From the IMG/VR virus record IMGVR_UViG_3300014913_000014, positions 1 through 59,724 of that record: a stretch of 59,724 nucleotides of DNA; one strand, given 5' to 3'. Positions within the stretch are counted from its first letter, which is position 1. Each line of letters opens with the position of its first letter. A program made the translations under genes and the position numbers. The DNA is from a virus. Its lineage: Duplodnaviria > Caudoviricetes. Positions 55,341 to 59,724 of the stretch are shown piece after piece. The notes below the pieces were generated by a model. It had not been told where the DNA came from and ran no database searches. It was given only the letters and a program-made list of their open reading frames with translations.

Positions 55341-55654
55341 TGTTAACAATTACAGTTGAACAAATTTTTACATTTGCAGTAGCAGGTACACTGTGGTCAC
55401 TAGTTCTTGAGTATTTTCCAGCATTAAATAGCTGGTATAATGCTCTGAGTGACCGCGTTCAGCAACTAGTCATTCTTGGTTCAGGTTTAGTGGTAGTGCT
55501 TGGTGCCTTTGGTTTCAATTGTTTGCAATTGTTTTTTGATCTTCCATGGGCTTGCACCTGGCTTGGCCTAAAAAATGCAGCAGTTGCATACTTGACCTTT
55601 GTATTTGCAACACAGGGTACATATCTAGTTACTCCAAAGGCATCTGATGAATAA
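55340..55654 (+). CDS. Three-TM membrane protein (holin-like)
   Basis: Three hydrophobic segments; ATQGTYLVTP C-terminus. Confidence 0.6.
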   Translation: MLTITVEQIFTFAVAGTLWSLVLEYFPALNSWYNALSDRVQQLVILGSGLVVVLGAFGFNCLQLFFDLPWACTWLGLKNAAVAYLTFVFATQGTYLVTPKASDE

Positions 55655-55925
55655 AGATGAAATCAAATACCATGATGTATTAGATGCTGGTTTGATTTCA
55701 TTCTGTAAAAACAATTTATCACCAAATGCACTGGTCATTTTGGGCGTATTCATTGATAGTGATGGTACTGTGAAAGTAGATACTGAGCAATATGCTTATT
55801 TGGTGCAACTATATTTGGAAATTGGCGCCCGTACTGGGGGCGAATTTAATGGTGTGCTAGATTTTGATCTGGGCGATGGCCCTTCGGCCATTCGACCTGG
55901 GGCTGAAACTGACACGTTGCTGTAG
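55647..55925 (+). CDS. Hypothetical protein
   Basis: Coupled ORF before the terminator. Confidence 0.6.
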   Translation: MNKDEIKYHDVLDAGLISFCKNNLSPNALVILGVFIDSDGTVKVDTEQYAYLVQLYLEIGARTGGEFNGVLDFDLGDGPSAIRPGAETDTLL

Positions 55926-55950
55926 ATTTTTGATATAATTAATAAACCAA

Positions 55951-55976
55951 GTGGGGGAGGGTGACTCCTCCCCCAC
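55951..55976 (+). terminator. GC-rich hairpin ending the replication operon
   Basis: GTGGGGGAGG...CCTCCCCCAC. Confidence 0.65.
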
Positions 55977-55996
55977 ACAATCTCATCAAATAGCGC

Positions 55997-56025
55997 TTGA
56001 CAAAAAAGCCGTTTTATGCTATAAT
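55997..56025 (+). promoter_or_regulatory. Consensus promoter for tRNA array part 1
   Basis: TTGACA-17-TATAAT with extended -10. Confidence 0.85.
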
Positions 56026-56045
56026 ACTGTCACTTGGAGCTATAT

Positions 56046-56118
56046 TGTCGAGTAACTCAACTGGTAGAGTGGCTCCCTGTTAAGGAGATGGTTGGGGGTT
56101 CGAGTCCCTCCTCGACAG
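56046..56118 (+). tRNA. tRNA-Asn(GTT)
   Basis: Cloverleaf; acceptor TGTCGAG/CTCGACA; loop CTGTTAA. Confidence 0.92.
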
Positions 56119-56129
56119 CCTGAAGATAT

Positions 56130-56142
56130 GCACATTAACAAT
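56130..56142 (+). promoter_or_regulatory. boxA-like antitermination element GCACATTAACAAT
   Basis: Identical copy at 58177; resembles rrn boxA. Confidence 0.55.
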
Positions 56143-56159
56143 TGTACTATAATATATGC

Positions 56160-56231
56160 GGGGGATTAGGTTAGTGGCTAAACCAGCAGTCTCCAAAACT
56201 GCCACCGGAGGTTCGAGTCCTTCATCCCCTG
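56160..56231 (+). tRNA. tRNA-Trp(CCA)
   Basis: Cloverleaf; loop CTCCAAA. Confidence 0.92.
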
Positions 56232-56236
56232 CCTAT

Positions 56237-56333
56237 GCCCTGTACCCCTTACGTTGGTTTACACCGTAGTAAATCAAAGACGCTGTTTGAACAGGCAGGG
56301 CTGGGAGTGTCAAAAGGGGTTGAATGGCACTCC
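56237..56333 (+). ncRNA. Putative pseudoknotted structured RNA (unknown family)
   Basis: Helices GCCCTGT/GCAGGGC, TTGGTTTAC/GTAAATCAA and GGAGTGTCA/TGGCACTCC; loop pairing ACCCCTT/AAGGGGT; fills the tRNA spacer. Confidence 0.55.
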
Positions 56334-56337
56334 GTGC

Positions 56338-56408
56338 TGCAGAGTCGTCTAGTGGTAGGACAGCGGACTCTGAATCCGCTTACGGAGGTTCGAATCCTTC
56401 CTCTGCAA
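56338..56408 (+). tRNA. tRNA-Gln(CTG)
   Basis: Cloverleaf; loop CTCTGAA. Confidence 0.93.
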
Positions 56409-56413
56409 CCTGA

Positions 56414-56484
56414 AGCTAGGTCGTCTAATGGTAGGACACGGGCCTTTGAAGCCCACGATGGCGGTTCGAATCCTCCCCTAGCTG
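56414..56484 (+). tRNA. tRNA-Gln(TTG)
   Basis: Cloverleaf; loop CTTTGAA. Confidence 0.9.
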
Positions 56485-56497
56485 CCTAGGAGGTGCT

Positions 56498-56674
56498 ATG
56501 TCAATACCAACATTGACTCTTTTATCTACAATTTTAGCCATCGTTGATGATGAACAAGAAGAAATAGATCATGTCTATTATTATGATGATAAAGACGGCC
56601 CAATCAGCGAATCGGATAAAATGGATGAAGAGCTAGAAGATATCGAATATCGAACAAAATTTGATAGGAGGTAG
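56498..56674 (+). CDS. 58-aa very acidic protein with hydrophobic N-terminus (below ORF-track cutoff)
   Basis: SD AGGAGGT; MSIPTLTLLSTILAIVDDEQEEIDHVYYYDDKDGPISESDKMDEELEDIEYRTKFDRR. Confidence 0.65.
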   Translation: MSIPTLTLLSTILAIVDDEQEEIDHVYYYDDKDGPISESDKMDEELEDIEYRTKFDRR

Positions 56675-56736
56675 GTTATGCGGTAAACCGTCGGGTTGTG
56701 GCCCCGATAAAGAGGGTTCGAATCCCTTCCTCCTGA
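56665..56736 (+). tRNA. tRNA-His(GTG), lacking encoded G-1 and C73
   Basis: Cloverleaf; loop TTGTGGC. Confidence 0.88.
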
Positions 56737-56740
56737 CCTT

Positions 56741-56816
56741 GGTCTTGTGGTGTAGTTTGGTCTAACATGCTTCCCTGTCAAGGAAGAGATCGAGGGTTCA
56801 AATCCCTTCAAGACCG
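56741..56816 (+). tRNA. tRNA-Asp(GTC)
   Basis: Cloverleaf; loop CTGTCAA. Confidence 0.93.
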
Positions 56817-56821
56817 CCTTT

Positions 56822-56903
56822 GCCGATATGGTGAAATTGGTAGACACAGTTGCCTCAAGAGCAATCGCCGAAAGGCATGTAGGTTCGAATCCTACTATCG
56901 GCA
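56822..56903 (+). tRNA. tRNA-Leu(CAA)
   Basis: Class II cloverleaf; loop CTCAAGA. Confidence 0.93.
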
Positions 56904-56908
56904 CTTAT

Positions 56909-56994
56909 GGAGACATGGCCGAACAGGATAAGGCGCTAGTCTTGAAAACTAGTGAGGCCGTCAGGCTGTGCAGGTTCGAGTCCTGCTGTCTCCG
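56909..56994 (+). tRNA. tRNA-Ser(TGA)
   Basis: Class II cloverleaf; loop CTTGAAA. Confidence 0.92.
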
Positions 56995-57134
56995 CCTATG
57001 GTGATACCTTTTATTGGCTTTGATTTATTATTGCATGCGCCCTTTGGATATGACCGTATACCATTTGCAGGGCATGTATGGGGGATTTGTTTCCATCCTC
57101 CACTTGATTTTCATGTACTTATATGGATAAGTTA

Positions 57135-57206
57135 GGTCAGAAACCCAATCGGCTAGGGAAGCGTCTGCAAAACGTTTTTTGGTGGGTTCGATTCCCACTC
57201 TGACCT
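57135..57206 (+). tRNA. tRNA-Cys(GCA)
   Basis: Cloverleaf; loop CTGCAAA; U73; A at position 8. Confidence 0.88.
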
Positions 57207-57209
57207 CCT

Positions 57210-57504
57210 TGTGACGGCTTGAGCCCACGCTGTACAATTGTGCAGAGGAAACTCAGGACTACTCCGCTTAAGGTGGGAGGACTATCAGTAGGCAGGGGCC
57301 ACGGTGAACATAAGAAACCACCCCCGAAATTTAGTCCGATTTACCACCGAGGTAGCAATCCTAAATTGCCTAGTGGGTGAGCGGCACTATGATGGCGTGG
57401 TTGGAGCAGTAACTCATAAAGAGTTACCACCGCAAGGTGAGATAGATGTGGGCAGGTTTCTAACATTAGAAATCTAACAGAATTCTGGTTACGGAGCCGT
57501 CACA
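57210..57504 (+). ncRNA. rnpB: RNase P RNA (divergent)
   Basis: P1 TGTGACGGCT/AGCCGTCACA; P2 GCCCAC/GTGGGC; P3 CTGTAC/GTGCAG; CR-I GAGGAAACTCAGGA pairs with CR-V ACAGAATTCTGGTTA (P4 with bulged U); CR-IV AGATAGATG; P19-like hairpin. Confidence 0.85.
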
Positions 57505-57713
57505 TGCATAAACTTAATTATCGTAAGACGTGGAAAGAATTTGGCAAGAGAATCCGAATAATTAATGGTTATCCCGCTTGTAGATGGCCCAGAAGAGGTT
57601 GTGGTCGATATTGGAAACGGCAATTGAGCAAGGCTCGTCGCAGAGCGTGGAAAGACCCACATCAAAGAGGTCTTCTACGTTGGGAACGTGAATGCAATTG
57701 GAAAAATTGGTGA
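57504..57713 (+). CDS. 69-aa highly basic Arg/Lys/Trp-rich protein
   Basis: ATG abuts the RNase P RNA 3' end; GGAG in the P1 strand is positioned as an SD. Confidence 0.5.
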   Translation: MHKLNYRKTWKEFGKRIRIINGYPACRWPRRGCGRYWKRQLSKARRRAWKDPHQRGLLRWERECNWKNW

Positions 57714-57717
57714 AAAG

Positions 57718-57948
57718 ATGACAGATATATCACTTACTGGCGGAGTCAAATTAGTAGAAAAGGCTCCAGAAAATTTAGAAATTGGAGAGGGTACATTTCC
57801 AGCCCATGGTGGAAAATTTAGAGGAGTAAGTGTCGGAAGAAACGACTATGGTTACTTCGTCTTTACTCATAGAACTAATTCCAAAGAGTACAACTCTCCA
57901 GCAGATATACCTGACGAAACTATTACATTTGTCAGAAGTACAGGATAA
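57718..57948 (+). CDS. Hypothetical protein (76 aa)
   Basis: Open ORF in the tRNA array; ATG at 57718. Confidence 0.65.
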   Translation: MTDISLTGGVKLVEKAPENLEIGEGTFPAHGGKFRGVSVGRNDYGYFVFTHRTNSKEYNSPADIPDETITFVRSTG

Positions 57949-57964
57949 TAAATTATAGCATTGT

Positions 57965-58055
57965 GGAATGTTGGCTGAGTGGCTGAAAGCGCCTCCCTGC
58001 TAAGGAGGTAGACGGTAGTACTGTCTCGAAGGTTCGAATCCTTCACATTCCGCCA
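57965..58055 (+). tRNA. tRNA-Ser(GCT), CCA encoded
   Basis: Class II cloverleaf; loop CTGCTAA. Confidence 0.93.
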
Positions 58056-58133
58056 GCCGATGTAGCTTTAATTGGATAGAGCGACCGCCTTGTAAGCGGA
58101 GGGTTGTGGGTTCGAGTCCCACCTTCGGCTCCA
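58056..58133 (+). tRNA. tRNA-Thr(TGT), CCA encoded
   Basis: Cloverleaf; loop CTTGTAA. Confidence 0.92.
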
Positions 58134-58141
58134 AAAAGTAC

Positions 58142-58189
58142 TTGACAAATCATAGATTTTCTGCTATAATATGACAGCACATTAACAAT
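58142..58189 (+). promoter_or_regulatory. Consensus promoter (58142-58170) plus boxA-like GCACATTAACAAT (58177-58189) for tRNA array part 2
   Basis: TTGACA-17-TATAAT. Confidence 0.8.
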
Positions 58190-58201
58190 AGAGGGCTTTT
58201 A

Positions 58202-58273
58202 GCACCTGTAGGCTAATGGATAAACCGCTTGGCTACGGACCAAGAGTTGGAGGTTCGAATCCTCTTAGGTGCT
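58202..58273 (+). tRNA. tRNA-Arg(ACG)
   Basis: Cloverleaf; loop CTACGGA. Confidence 0.92.
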
Positions 58274-58278
58274 CCTTT

Positions 58279-58366
58279 GGACGTATGGCTGAGTCTGGTT
58301 GAAAGCACCGGTCTGTAGAACCGGCGAGGTTTGTCCTCCACGGTGGTTCAAATCCATCTGCGTCCA
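58279..58366 (+). tRNA. tRNA-Tyr(GTA)
   Basis: Class II cloverleaf; loop CTGTAGA. Confidence 0.9.
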
Positions 58367-58370
58367 CAAT

Positions 58371-58453
58371 GCCGGTGTGGTGAAACTTGGTAGCCACGCA
58401 CGCCTTAGAAGCGTGTGCCTTCGGGCGTAGAGGTTCGAATCCTCTCATCGGCA
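58371..58453 (+). tRNA. tRNA-Leu(TAG)
   Basis: Class II cloverleaf; loop CTTAGAA. Confidence 0.93.
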
Positions 58454-58456
58454 CTT

Positions 58457-58532
58457 GGGGCTGGATATAGCGATTACATAGCAAACAACTATACTTTGTT
58501 TATACGTTTTATATCGCTATAGTTTTTGCCTC
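58457..58532 (+). ncRNA. Stem-bulge-loop small RNA, copy 1 of 3 (unknown family)
   Basis: GGGGC-TGGA-TATAGCGAT-TACATAGC-var-ATCGCTATA-GTTTTT-GCCTC. Confidence 0.75.
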
Positions 58533-58540
58533 TTTGATTT

Positions 58541-58613
58541 GTGCCTGTAGCTCAGTCGGTAGAGCATCTGTCTGAAGAACAGAGGGTCATGGGTTCAACT
58601 CCCATTGGGCACA
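58541..58613 (+). tRNA. tRNA-Phe(GAA)
   Basis: Cloverleaf; loop CTGAAGA. Confidence 0.93.
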
Positions 58614-58616
58614 CTG

Positions 58617-58684
58617 AGGGCTGGATGTGATGATTACATAGCCAAAGGTTATCACACAATCTATATCATTGCAGCTTTTGCCCT
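58617..58684 (+). ncRNA. Stem-bulge-loop small RNA, copy 2 of 3
   Basis: AGGGC-TGGA-TGTGATGAT-TACATAGC-var-ATCATTGCA-GCTTTT-GCCCT. Confidence 0.75.
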
Positions 58685-58692
58685 GATATATT

Positions 58693-58765
58693 GGGGCTAT
58701 GATAGTAATGGGGAACTATCCTCGTTTGCACCGAGGCATTCTGGGTTCGAATCCCAGTAGCTCCA
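58693..58765 (+). tRNA. tRNA-Ala(TGC)
   Basis: Cloverleaf; G3:U70; loop TTTGCAC. Confidence 0.9.
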
Positions 58766-58768
58766 CAA

Positions 58769-58892
58769 GGACCAGCCGTAATTTATAGGATTATGGGCTG
58801 GGACCTGCCGTGGTTTTGACGATTGTACCATAAACAAGCGTCCTCTGGTCCCCTTAACGGGAACTCGAACCCGCATGGCAGTTTCTGGTCCA
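58769..58892 (+). ncRNA. Putative structured RNA (unknown family)
   Basis: Closing 7-bp GGACCAG/CTGGTCC plus A; CTGCCGTG/CATGGCAG; CCGTAATTT/GGATTATGG; GACG-TTGT/ACAA-CGTC. Confidence 0.55.
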
Positions 58893-58921
58893 TGCCTGCC
58901 TTATCAAAAATGGGCCACATT

Positions 58922-58994
58922 CGGGGTGTGGTCGAGTGGTTAAGGCGCGCGGTTTGGGGCCGCGAAATCGCTGGTTCGAATCCAGCCATCCCGA
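58922..58994 (+). tRNA. tRNA-Pro(TGG)
   Basis: Cloverleaf; loop TTTGGGG. Confidence 0.93.
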
Positions 58995-59011
58995 CCTTGA
59001 TTTCTAATTAA

Positions 59012-59023
59012 GCCCTTTAACAT
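59012..59023 (+). promoter_or_regulatory. boxA-like element GCCCTTTAACAT
   Basis: One mismatch to E. coli rrn boxA GCTCTTTAACA. Confidence 0.5.
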
Positions 59024-59029
59024 TTATAT

Positions 59030-59102
59030 AGCGGGGTGGACAAGTGGTTAAGTCGCTCGCCTCATAAGCAAGAGATCGAGGGTTCGAATCCCTCCCCCGC
59101 CA
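59030..59102 (+). tRNA. tRNA-Met(CAT), initiator-like
   Basis: A1-C72 mismatch, GCGGGG/CCCCGC acceptor, A11:U24; loop CTCATAA. Confidence 0.85.
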
Positions 59103-59107
59103 CCTTT

Positions 59108-59190
59108 GCCGGTGTGGTGAAATATGGTAGACACGCCTGACTTAAGATCAGGTTCCTTCGGGAGTGCAGGTTCGACTCCTGCCATCGGCA
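59108..59190 (+). tRNA. tRNA-Leu(TAA)
   Basis: Class II cloverleaf; loop CTTAAGA. Confidence 0.93.
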
Positions 59191-59193
59191 CTT

Positions 59194-59279
59194 GGGGTTG
59201 GATGCCTTGATTACATAGCTTTGAAAAGTTTAATGAAACTTTTATCCATTTATCCATTTATCATGGCAGCTTTTACCTC
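59194..59279 (+). ncRNA. Stem-bulge-loop small RNA, copy 3 of 3
   Basis: GGGGT-TGGA-TGCCTTGAT-TACATAGC-var-ATCATGGCA-GCTTTT-ACCTC. Confidence 0.75.
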
Positions 59280-59283
59280 ATTT

Positions 59284-59357
59284 GCTTCTGTAGTTCAGTG
59301 GAATAGAACAACGGTCTTCTAAACCGGAGGTCGCAGGTTCAAATCCTGCCAGAAGCG
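59284..59357 (+). tRNA. tRNA-Arg(TCT)
   Basis: Cloverleaf; loop CTTCTAA. Confidence 0.92.
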
Positions 59358-59371
59358 CCTAGGAGGGAACT

Positions 59372-59722
59372 GTGTACAAAGTAGCAATAGTAGGTAGTAG
59401 ACGTTTTAATGACTACAACTTTATGCGGCGTGTACTAGACCCCCATGTTAACGATATCTCAATGATTATCTCTGGAGGAGCAAAAGGTGCAGATACACTG
59501 GCACAAAGATATGCAAGAGATAATGGAATACCAATATATATTATATATCCTGACTATAGAAAATATGGAAAAGTGGCACCGTTTCGTAGAAATGTAATAA
59601 TTGCAAATCTTGCAGAGAAAATGATAGCATTTGCTTATTCAGATAGTCGGGGAACAAGGCATGCTGTCAACAAAATGAAGCAACTTAACAAACCAGTAGT
59701 AGTAATAGAATTGGACCAGTAG
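59372..59722 (+). CDS. SLOG-superfamily protein (DUF2493/YspA-like)
   Basis: IVGSR, IISGGAKGADTLA, GKVAPFRRN and SRGT. Confidence 0.85.
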   Translation: MYKVAIVGSRRFNDYNFMRRVLDPHVNDISMIISGGAKGADTLAQRYARDNGIPIYIIYPDYRKYGKVAPFRRNVIIANLAEKMIAFAYSDSRGTRHAVNKMKQLNKPVVVIELDQ

Positions 59723-59724
59723 CT

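Follow-up and report, generated by a model that had tools for sequence, protein, structure and literature searches.

Three copies of a previously uncatalogued structured RNA repeat between the tRNA genes of an uncultured phage

The virus record IMGVR_UViG_3300014913_000014 (Duplodnaviria; Caudoviricetes) is an IMG/VR record of 59,724 bp, analysed here over its whole length and called the window (estimated genome completeness 67%), and it carries at its right end 20 tRNA genes, all on the + strand (56046-59359), between some of which lie the three short elements, E1, E2 and E3, that are the subject of this report. A scan of the window with Rfam 15 at gathering scores returned 20 matches, all of them tRNA and none on an element. 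Elsewhere the window encodes a family-A DNA polymerase (PolA), a DnaB-like helicase, a RecA/UvsX-like protein, tail and head proteins and a lysozyme. Two sigma-70-type promoters on the + strand, both with 12/12 hexamer matches and an extended -10 TG, stand just 5' of a tRNA block each (55997-56025 and 58142-58170), and perfect promoters of this type point to a presumed bacterial host with a standard housekeeping sigma factor. The second promoter heads the block that holds all three elements, whose order is Arg(acg), Tyr, Leu(tag), E1, Phe, E2, Ala, a 156-nt spacer, Pro, Met, Leu(taa), E3 and Arg(tct), with an open reading frame (ORF) of the SLOG family beginning at 59372, 3' of tRNA-Arg(tct). 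The features on which the argument depends are as follows, where bit scores refer to a covariance model made from E1, E2 and E3 and are what they are by construction.

58142-58170, + strand: sigma-70-type promoter; TTGACA, 17 nt, TATAAT, with TG before the second hexamer
58371-58453, + strand: tRNA-Leu(tag), then CTT (58454-58456) at the CCA position
58457-58532, + strand: E1, 76 nt; outer stem 58457-58461/58528-58532; UGGA 58462-58465; inner helix 58466-58474/58513-58521; UACAUAGC 58475-58482; variable part 58483-58512; GUUUUU 58522-58527; 97.4 bits
58541-58613, + strand: tRNA-Phe(gaa), between E1 and E2, then CTG (58614-58616)
58617-58684, + strand: E2, 68 nt; outer stem 58617-58621/58680-58684; UGGA 58622-58625; inner helix 58626-58634/58665-58673; UACAUAGC 58635-58642; variable part 58643-58664; GCUUUU 58674-58679; 81.2 bits
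58693-58765, + strand: tRNA-Ala(tgc), beginning 8 nt past E2
59108-59190, + strand: tRNA-Leu(taa), then CTT (59191-59193)
59194-59279, + strand: E3, 86 nt; outer stem 59194-59198/59275-59279; UGGA 59199-59202; inner helix 59203-59211/59260-59268 with one U.U mismatch; UACAUAGC 59212-59219; variable part 59220-59259; GCUUUU 59269-59274; 81.1 bits
59284-59357, + strand: tRNA-Arg(tct), beginning 4 nt past E3

All three elements share one architecture, consisting of a 5-bp outer stem, a small asymmetric internal loop, a 9-bp inner helix, the invariant UACAUAGC and a variable, A/U-rich part of 22-40 nt (30, 22 and 40 nt in E1, E2 and E3; 20-32% G+C; partly self-folding). Their fit between the tRNA genes is close: with discriminator bases placed by Rfam at 58453, 58613 and 59190, each element starts right after a 3-nt trailer at the CCA position (CTT, CTG and CTT) and ends 8, 8 and 4 nt short of the next tRNA. 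An earlier reading made from the letters alone (the sequence-only reading) had described these coordinates, lengths, motif order and tRNA-to-element distances, and they were recovered as it gave them. Each element contains one copy of the 11-mer GATTACATAGC, which is found nowhere else in the 59.7-kb record, and the next-best site of the covariance model anywhere in the record, on either strand, scores 11.5 bits.

Aligning the three sequences revealed that 41 of 42 pair cells hold standard pairs and that 7 of the 14 pairs show compensatory two-sided changes (2/5 in the outer stem, 5/9 in the inner helix), which bears out the claim that the helices differ in sequence while keeping their pairing. 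Shuffled columns equalled the pairing value in 1 of 500 trials and the compensatory value likewise in 1 of 500, and when the partners were slid by 1-3 columns pairing stood at 33-58% with 0-1 compensatory pairs. RNAalifold, run with no structure supplied, returned the same two helices together with two extra pairs (one G.U; one G-C/G.U) inside the UGGA/GYUUUU loop. Because of these added pairs the loop, which the sequence-only reading had taken to be a nearly invariant internal loop, really comprises a U opposite UUU plus an A.G mismatch. The stem is thus better described as 5 bp, U opposite UUU, 2 bp, A.G mismatch and 9 bp, a near-continuous irregular helix under a large loop that opens with UACAUAGC. 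Single-sequence folds also placed a small hairpin in the apical part of each element, as had been proposed, with some of the conserved AUAGC taken up by the hairpin of E2. The + strand has four G.U pairs that would turn into C.A mismatches on the - strand, and because they fit only the former, an RNA read from the tRNA strand is favoured.

The distribution of invariant columns carries most of the weight. Invariant columns number 17 of 18 in the unpaired scaffold but only 13 of 28 in the helices (Fisher p=0.0011 for these two) and 6 of 43 in the loop, and because so few loop columns are shared the copies must be old enough for divergence. Covarying helices with fixed unpaired bases are the pattern expected of a recognised RNA and would not be expected of recent inert duplicates. 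That the unpaired scaffold is more conserved than the helices is our main argument that something recognises the constant unpaired bases, and recent duplication alone would be a hard explanation for it. The signature of a functional RNA that had been read from the letters is therefore present as far as covarying helices and conserved unpaired bases go, but it comes from only three paralogues of one genome. Judged from these sequences, E1-E3 are a genuine repeat of structured RNA within a phage tRNA operon, one not catalogued before.

Searches for known families and for homologues returned no counterpart. With Rfam 15 at E<=10 and permissive filters there were 44 matches in 55500-59724, none of them overlapping E1, E2 or E3, in keeping with the earlier statement that the family was not recognised, and the hammerhead, twister, pistol, hatchet, hairpin and HDV models likewise gave no element match at that threshold. 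An IMG/VR scan with TGGA-N6-GATTACATAGC found 68 loci with a single hit each, of which the covariance model scored only 4, at 17-27 bits, with helices largely unpaired and no tRNA gene in those 4, and these weak matches are taken as chance. Omitting TGGA gave 5 IMG/VR loci (best score 19.2 bits, helices unpaired), and a strict pattern requiring the 5' and 3' scaffold gave one match in JGI metagenome contigs, on a high-G+C bacterial contig at 10.9 bits with no pairing and no tRNA, also taken as chance. Searching 50,697 phage records by blastn with the array and with E1 returned only single tRNAs, or coding-region matches at E>=0.8.

Relatives of the phage were sought through its proteins. The window PolA belongs to a clade of metagenomic relatives at 40-74% identity, those at 72-74% lying on contigs of up to 96.7 kb, and the window's own PolA is also encoded on an 86.8-kb contig; a PolA alignment search of IMG/VR gave 80 loci, none above 38% identity, over whose 1.34 Mb the covariance model made one 14.6-bit match; GTDB genome contigs gave one remote PolA (32% identity); and tblastn against INPHARED gave no match above 40% identity. 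Locus searches of IMG/VR with the proteins of ORF 57688, SLOG and DnaB found no close relative, and an ORF inside the tRNA array had no INPHARED match and, in IMG/VR, matched only G001, the record behind our loci L151 and L157 (96,486 bp, terminal repeats, 100% complete, PolA 56% identical to that of the window; coordinates below are those on L157). The route proposed by the sequence-only reading, homologues by way of a covariance model from the three copies, thus yielded none in the IMG/VR motif loci, the PolA-related loci or G001, and the scaffold would be genome-specific as far as we have searched. Keyword searches of an open-access literature subset found no paper describing such elements. 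Near-identical copies of 56000-59724 occur in sediment, marine-sediment and hydrothermal-vent metagenomes from at least three further studies. Pieces from DNA runs of two of these metagenomes show 0 differences to the window around the elements and hence no natural variants.

Comparison with G001 revealed a tRNA array syntenic with that of the window. Its first part runs Asn, Trp, Gln, Gln, His, Asp, Leu(caa), Cys, an RNase P-like RNA, a small basic ORF and a 77-aa ORF, and its second part Ser, Thr, Arg(acg), transfer-messenger RNA (tmRNA), Tyr, Leu(tag), Ala, Pro, Met, Leu(taa), Phe, Arg(tct), a SLOG-like ORF (an identity read from sequence alone) and further tRNAs. Four of its inter-tRNA spacers fold so that each is closed by a terminal stem of 8-11 bp beside the tRNA ends (z -2.8 to -3.3):

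L157 7329-7409, - strand: stem-closed spacer, 81 nt
L157 6762-6854, - strand: stem-closed spacer, 93 nt
L157 6596-6675, - strand: stem-closed spacer, 80 nt
L157 6931-6988, - strand: stem-closed spacer, 58 nt

These spacers are single-copy, and they have no motif in common with the elements or, by reading, with one another. In sequence they are unrelated to the elements (z <=0.9), except for E2 against the 80-nt spacer (z 3.9), a candidate homology that we dropped since the alignment is unconvincing. Because G001 has such spacers with unrelated sequence, stem-closed spacers between tRNA genes appear to be a trait of this phage group.

REARRANGEMENT coincides with the elements: of the tRNA genes shared by the two arrays, tRNA-Phe alone is sited differently over this stretch in the window and in G001 (tRNA-Ser(tga) is found in the window array only). 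The order in G001 is Leu(taa), 80-nt spacer, Phe, Arg(tct), and in the window it is Leu(tag), E1, Phe, E2, Ala, with E3 at the Leu(taa)/Arg(tct) junction. The two tRNA-Phe genes are 88% identical (window 58541-58613; L157 6522-6595), and the junctions of both sites are marked by elements in the window. Because E1 and E2 flank Phe and E3 marks its other site, the element repeats may have mediated the move of Phe or been spread by it.

Several further features of the G001 array deserve mention in their own right. A tmRNA gene (L157 7552-7802, - strand; 77.8 bits, gathering 47) lies between tRNA-Arg(acg) and tRNA-Tyr, a TTGACA...TATAAT-like sequence is seen by eye 3' of it, and no tmRNA is called in the window at the corresponding Arg/Tyr junction, where the two genes are only 5 nt apart. 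The 81-nt spacer contains three internal hairpins, one with a UUAGAUU loop that reads as T-loop-like, and may be a decayed or tRNA-like gene. Between two tRNA-Ile genes stands a 102-aa ORF (L157 5663-5971, - strand) that, by sequence reading alone, is a putative HNH endonuclease and recalls the homing endonuclease segB within the T4 tRNA cluster.

From the observed sequence, fold, covariation, strand and operon position of E1-E3 we infer transcription through the elements, cut sites at their ends, stability of the product and a partner for it, a reading that we favour tentatively and at somewhat less than even chances: the elements would be transcribed within the tRNA precursor, freed by the maturation cuts of their neighbours and left to persist as end-locked hairpins that dock a protein, with the apical part drifting. 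E1-E3 would then be three paralogous modules of a polycistronic tRNA precursor started at the promoter 58142-58170. At one end an endonuclease of RNase Z or RNase E type would cut at or after the upstream discriminator, at the other RNase P would cut at +1 of the downstream tRNA, and the product would be a hairpin RNA of ~75-95 nt, the 5-bp outer stem holding both of its ends. A sequence-specific docking surface for a phage or host protein would be formed by the unpaired, invariant nucleotides, which are UACAUAGC atop the 9-bp helix and, low in the stem, U/UUU with the A.G mismatch; the apical 22-40 nt would be under free drift, and the likeliest role would be that of a protein-binding or sequestering small RNA made together with the phage tRNAs. 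Release by tRNA processing is plausible because the elements lie on the tRNA strand inside the tRNA operon. The array has 19 tRNA-tRNA junctions, of which 3 carry an element and 9 measure just 3-5 nt, so that processing does not in general require such hairpins.

A number of observations weigh against this reading. The single-sequence folds reach -20.8, -19.8 and -20.3 kcal/mol for E1, E2 and E3, and only E1 is clearly better than its shuffles (z -3.8), E2 and E3 being not much better (z -1.5 and -2.0). No homologue was found in IMG/VR, JGI metagenomes, INPHARED phages, the PolA-related loci or G001, where the covariance model found no element on the whole record (default filters) or in the 11-kb array region (filters off); because of this, all of the covariation rests on three paralogues of one genome, and any function of the elements would be lineage-specific or fast-evolving. 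No candidate RNA-binding partner is seen in the Pfam families listed (25 of 31) for 66 ORFs of the window, which covers 67% of the genome. In two RNA runs of one metatranscriptome study no contig lay over E1-E3, but contigs of such short RNAs are not expected, and this has no bearing on their expression.

The chief rival, which we consider possible if on balance unlikely, is that the elements are cis-acting hairpins for processing or insulation, protecting tRNA folding from long spacers and perhaps also giving a double-strand- or structure-specific nuclease (RNase III or RNase E type) a defined place to part CCA-less tRNAs, after which the excised piece would be degraded. It gains from the stem-closed spacers of G001, which have this form whatever their sequence, and from the extra RNAalifold pairs, with which an element becomes a near-continuous irregular helix of ~17 layers with an internal bubble, reminiscent of the RNase III sites of phage T7. 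The three upstream tRNAs, moreover, have CT(T/G) and not CC(T/A) after the discriminator, but Leu(caa) likewise has CTT and yet no element, and the 9 junctions of 3-5 nt do without any hairpin. Simple insulation also leaves the 17 of 18 invariant unpaired positions unexplained, and the spacers of G001 have no motif in common with the elements or, by reading, among themselves.

Less probable, and in our view doubtful, is a dispersed repeat tied to the rearrangement of tRNA genes, whether a selfish or recombinogenic insert after tRNAs or a repeat that moves cassettes, with the fold being secondary or a hairpin of single-stranded DNA. The displacement of Phe supports it, and the hairpins may mark a movable tRNA-gene cassette, with E1/E2 around the relocated Phe and E3 at its other site. 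The three direct repeats each follow the same short context, CACT(T/G), their stem, internal loop, stem and variable tip recall by analogy the attC sites of integrons, and the array of G001 contains the putative HNH endonuclease ORF, itself known from sequence reading alone. Opposed to this are the lack of a tyrosine (PF00589) or serine (PF00239) recombinase in the window, at 67% of the genome, and in G001 (0/2 records each), the lack by eye of any clear target-site duplication or long terminal inverted repeat, and the G.U pairs, which favour an RNA of one strand. Helices and loops are also too diverged for a recent spread, yet the unpaired motifs are kept, and the comparison is of two genomes only.

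A closer relative of the favoured reading, which we hold to be quite unlikely, is that a shared protein-binding scaffold and differing apical cargo loops, released by tRNA enzymes, would target a host protein with an RNA-binding or defence role, acting as decoys or adaptors. The sequence-only reading had named Ro60/TROVE proteins, RtcB and nucleases as possible co-occurring partners. Six-frame searches of the window and G001 found neither TROVE nor RtcB and did find their positive controls (TROVE controls in 2 of 14 genomes), and the Pfam list and PADLOC overviews of the 66 ORFs showed no evident RNA-binding or toxin partner. A type III antitoxin of ToxI-like kind was considered separately and rejected: tRNAs stand between the copies, whose loops differ, and no toxin of ToxN, AbiQ or CptN type is found among the 18 PADLOC families matched by the 66 ORFs.

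That the elements are an undescribed small self-cleaving ribozyme helping to cut the tRNA precursor is very unlikely. Small ribozymes typically have their conserved nucleotides concentrated in internal loops flanked by covarying helices, as is seen here, and RNA cutting is needed at this location, but no Rfam ribozyme model matches at E<=10, no conserved candidate tertiary pairing and no homologues were found, and cellular enzymes suffice at the other junctions. We attach equally little probability to programmable guide RNAs, in which the variable part would be a payload that pairs with a target and the scaffold would bind an effector, the equivalent in nature of synthetic tRNA-gRNA arrays. 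The idea, which the sequence-only reading had also raised, fits the layout of fixed scaffold and variable segment and the plausible release by tRNA processing. It did not fare well, as the longest exact matches of the variable parts on either strand of the window are 11, 10 and 12 nt, the chance level for 2 x 59.7 kb. The variable parts are also low in G+C, unequal in length and partly self-folding, and the Pfam and PADLOC families listed include no TnpB, IscB or Cas effector (bar a Cas4-like nuclease).

Y-RNA-like adaptors for the Ro60 (Rsr) protein, another earlier suggestion, are extremely doubtful, with a phage-encoded partner largely refuted. Ends that pair in a stem bearing an internal loop, an apical region that is both large and variable, and a 5' GGYUGG that is like the start of vertebrate Y RNAs lend the idea some appeal, but no Y_RNA or YrlA model matches an element (the sole YrlA match, at 22.1 bits against a gathering score of 69 and E 0.24, lies over the tRNAs at 58222-58335), the six-frame search found no TROVE domain in the window, at 67% of its genome, or in the complete G001, and the elements have no tRNA-like domain. 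Terminators or attenuators of the tRNA operon have next to no chance of being the explanation: the U-run of GYUUUU does stand 3' of the inner-helix 3' strand, but the stem, rich in A/U, carries a loop of 30-48 nt, the outer-stem strand comes after the U-run, genes of the same orientation (tRNAs and an ORF) lie downstream, and the scan that called 5 terminator-like sites in 55500-59724 called none at E1-E3.

Comparison with known RNA motifs was also fruitless. A K-turn was rejected for want of GA on the 3' strand, a C/D box since a GUGAUGA-like word occurs in E2 only, an H/ACA-like RNA since the internal loop does not vary and an ACA tail is missing, and an anticodon-loop mimic in AUUACAU since no stem flanks it. 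The likeness of GGYUGGAU to the 3' region of 16S rRNA extends over 8 nt and is probably chance.

The surrounding array has further features that concern RNA maturation. Among the 19 tRNAs tabulated, 17 have 3' trailers of CCT, CTT, CTG or CAA type, and CCA follows only Ser(gct) and Thr; because the trailers are mostly not CCA, nearly all these phage tRNAs would need 3' trimming and CCA addition or repair. Over 56119-59360 CCT is the most common trailer, with CT- or CA-type trailers in five tRNAs. The sequence-only reading had also invoked a phage RNase P, and a candidate for its RNA does lie in the array:

57211-57507, + strand: reduced bacterial class-A RNase P RNA-like gene, directly 3' of tRNA-Cys; 47.3 bits, below the gathering score of 100; E ~1e-13

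Its P1-P4 and ACAGAA core could be aligned and most of the specificity domain is absent. G001 has an RNase P-like RNA at the same place in its array (203 nt, 58.9 bits, L157 8497-8699, - strand), and the two metatranscriptome runs each yielded one contig inside the window gene (57231 or 57235 to 57452, 218-222 nt, 0 differences), for which DNA carry-over is possible. Keyword searches of the same literature subset found no paper on a phage-encoded RNase P RNA. In both phages two small ORFs follow this gene (window 57504-57713 and 57718-57948, + strand; L157 8293-8502 and 8056-8289, - strand). The first encodes a very basic, Cys/Trp-containing protein of 69 aa with no Pfam or PHROG match, which could be a cofactor of the RNase P-like RNA, and the second a protein of 76-77 aa, 74% identical between the phages, that matches phrog_3666 (function unknown).

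Three other spacers of the window array may be noted. The 156-nt Ala-to-Pro spacer (58766-58921, + strand) folds at -51.7 kcal/mol for 150 nt (z -2.6; 0/200 shuffles as strong) and contains GGGAACTCGAACCC, the reverse complement of which reads like a tRNA T-arm; its sole Rfam match is a 15-bit one to permuted tmRNA, and ARAGORN makes no call. The Trp-to-Gln spacer (56232-56337, + strand, 106 nt) has two G+C-rich hairpins (-35.6 kcal/mol, z -1.6), and the Gln-to-His spacer (56485-56664, + strand, 180 nt) holds a highly acidic 58-aa ORF without a Pfam match (56498-56674), preceded by a GGAGG site.

Current discussion treats phage tRNA clusters chiefly as devices of codon supply or anti-defence, and the non-tRNA RNAs in them, of which T4 rnaC and rnaD are examples, have to our knowledge lacked an assigned function since the 1970s. 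Three paralogues in which stems covary and unpaired bases stay fixed point to a specific binding partner for E1-E3, and if the RNAs proved stable and protein-bound, phages would be shown to co-produce accessory small RNAs with their tRNAs. Were the decoy or adaptor reading true, the tRNA operon would be a small-RNA production line, a natural counterpart of engineered small-RNA arrays punctuated by tRNAs. The value of this is limited for now, the family being known from one uncultured phage genome with no homologue to support its conservation.

Set beside known systems, the elements share parts of their layout with several. The tRNA-miRNA units of the herpesvirus MHV68 and synthetic tRNA-gRNA arrays also have small hairpin RNAs freed from a tRNA-linked precursor by tRNA-processing enzymes, but these are eukaryotic or engineered, and for E1-E3 no Dicer or Cas partner and no target complementarity were found in the window. 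Integron attC sites consist of an outer stem, an unpaired spacer, an inner stem and a variable terminal structure and flank a mobile gene cassette; the layout of the elements is similar by analogy, with tRNA-Phe as the gene displaced relative to G001, although there is no integrase, the 3' GYTTTTG does not by eye fit the attC end boxes, and the G.U pairs favour RNA. The RNase III sites of phage T7 are irregular, bubble-bearing hairpins that punctuate a polycistronic transcript and are similar to one another within the genome, a layout which the elements would resemble by analogy, except that the T7 hairpins separate mRNAs and the elements separate tRNAs. YrlA (RF02553), which acts with Ro60/Rsr, is like the elements in having a terminal stem formed by its ends, an internal loop and a large variable apex, and the element system differs from it in having no covariance-model match, no TROVE gene and no tRNA-like module. 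The spacers of G001 resemble the elements in lying in a syntenic array, in their size of 58-93 nt and in terminal stems a few nucleotides from both tRNAs, with unrelated sequences.

The closest precedent is that of T4 rnaC and rnaD, which is positional only and not one of relatedness. Like E1-E3 they are structured non-tRNA RNAs arranged head-to-tail with phage tRNA genes of the same strand, rnaD beginning 1 nt past tRNA-Arg and rnaC 6 nt past rnaD, and they are annotated as 'small, stable RNA' (species 1 and 2). In PMC9697503 their function is described as still unknown. They differ in being longer (139 and 119 nt) and in standing at the end of the cluster and not between tRNAs; rnaC has a tRNA-like T-arm sequence, which the elements do not, and rnaC and rnaD have no constant scaffold and variable loop in common, unlike E1-E3. 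The covariance model, run on the T4 region, has its best score, 10.3 bits, outside rnaC and rnaD, and their folds differ from that of the elements. In their setting, then, E1-E3 belong to a known kind, the non-tRNA RNAs embedded in phage tRNA clusters.

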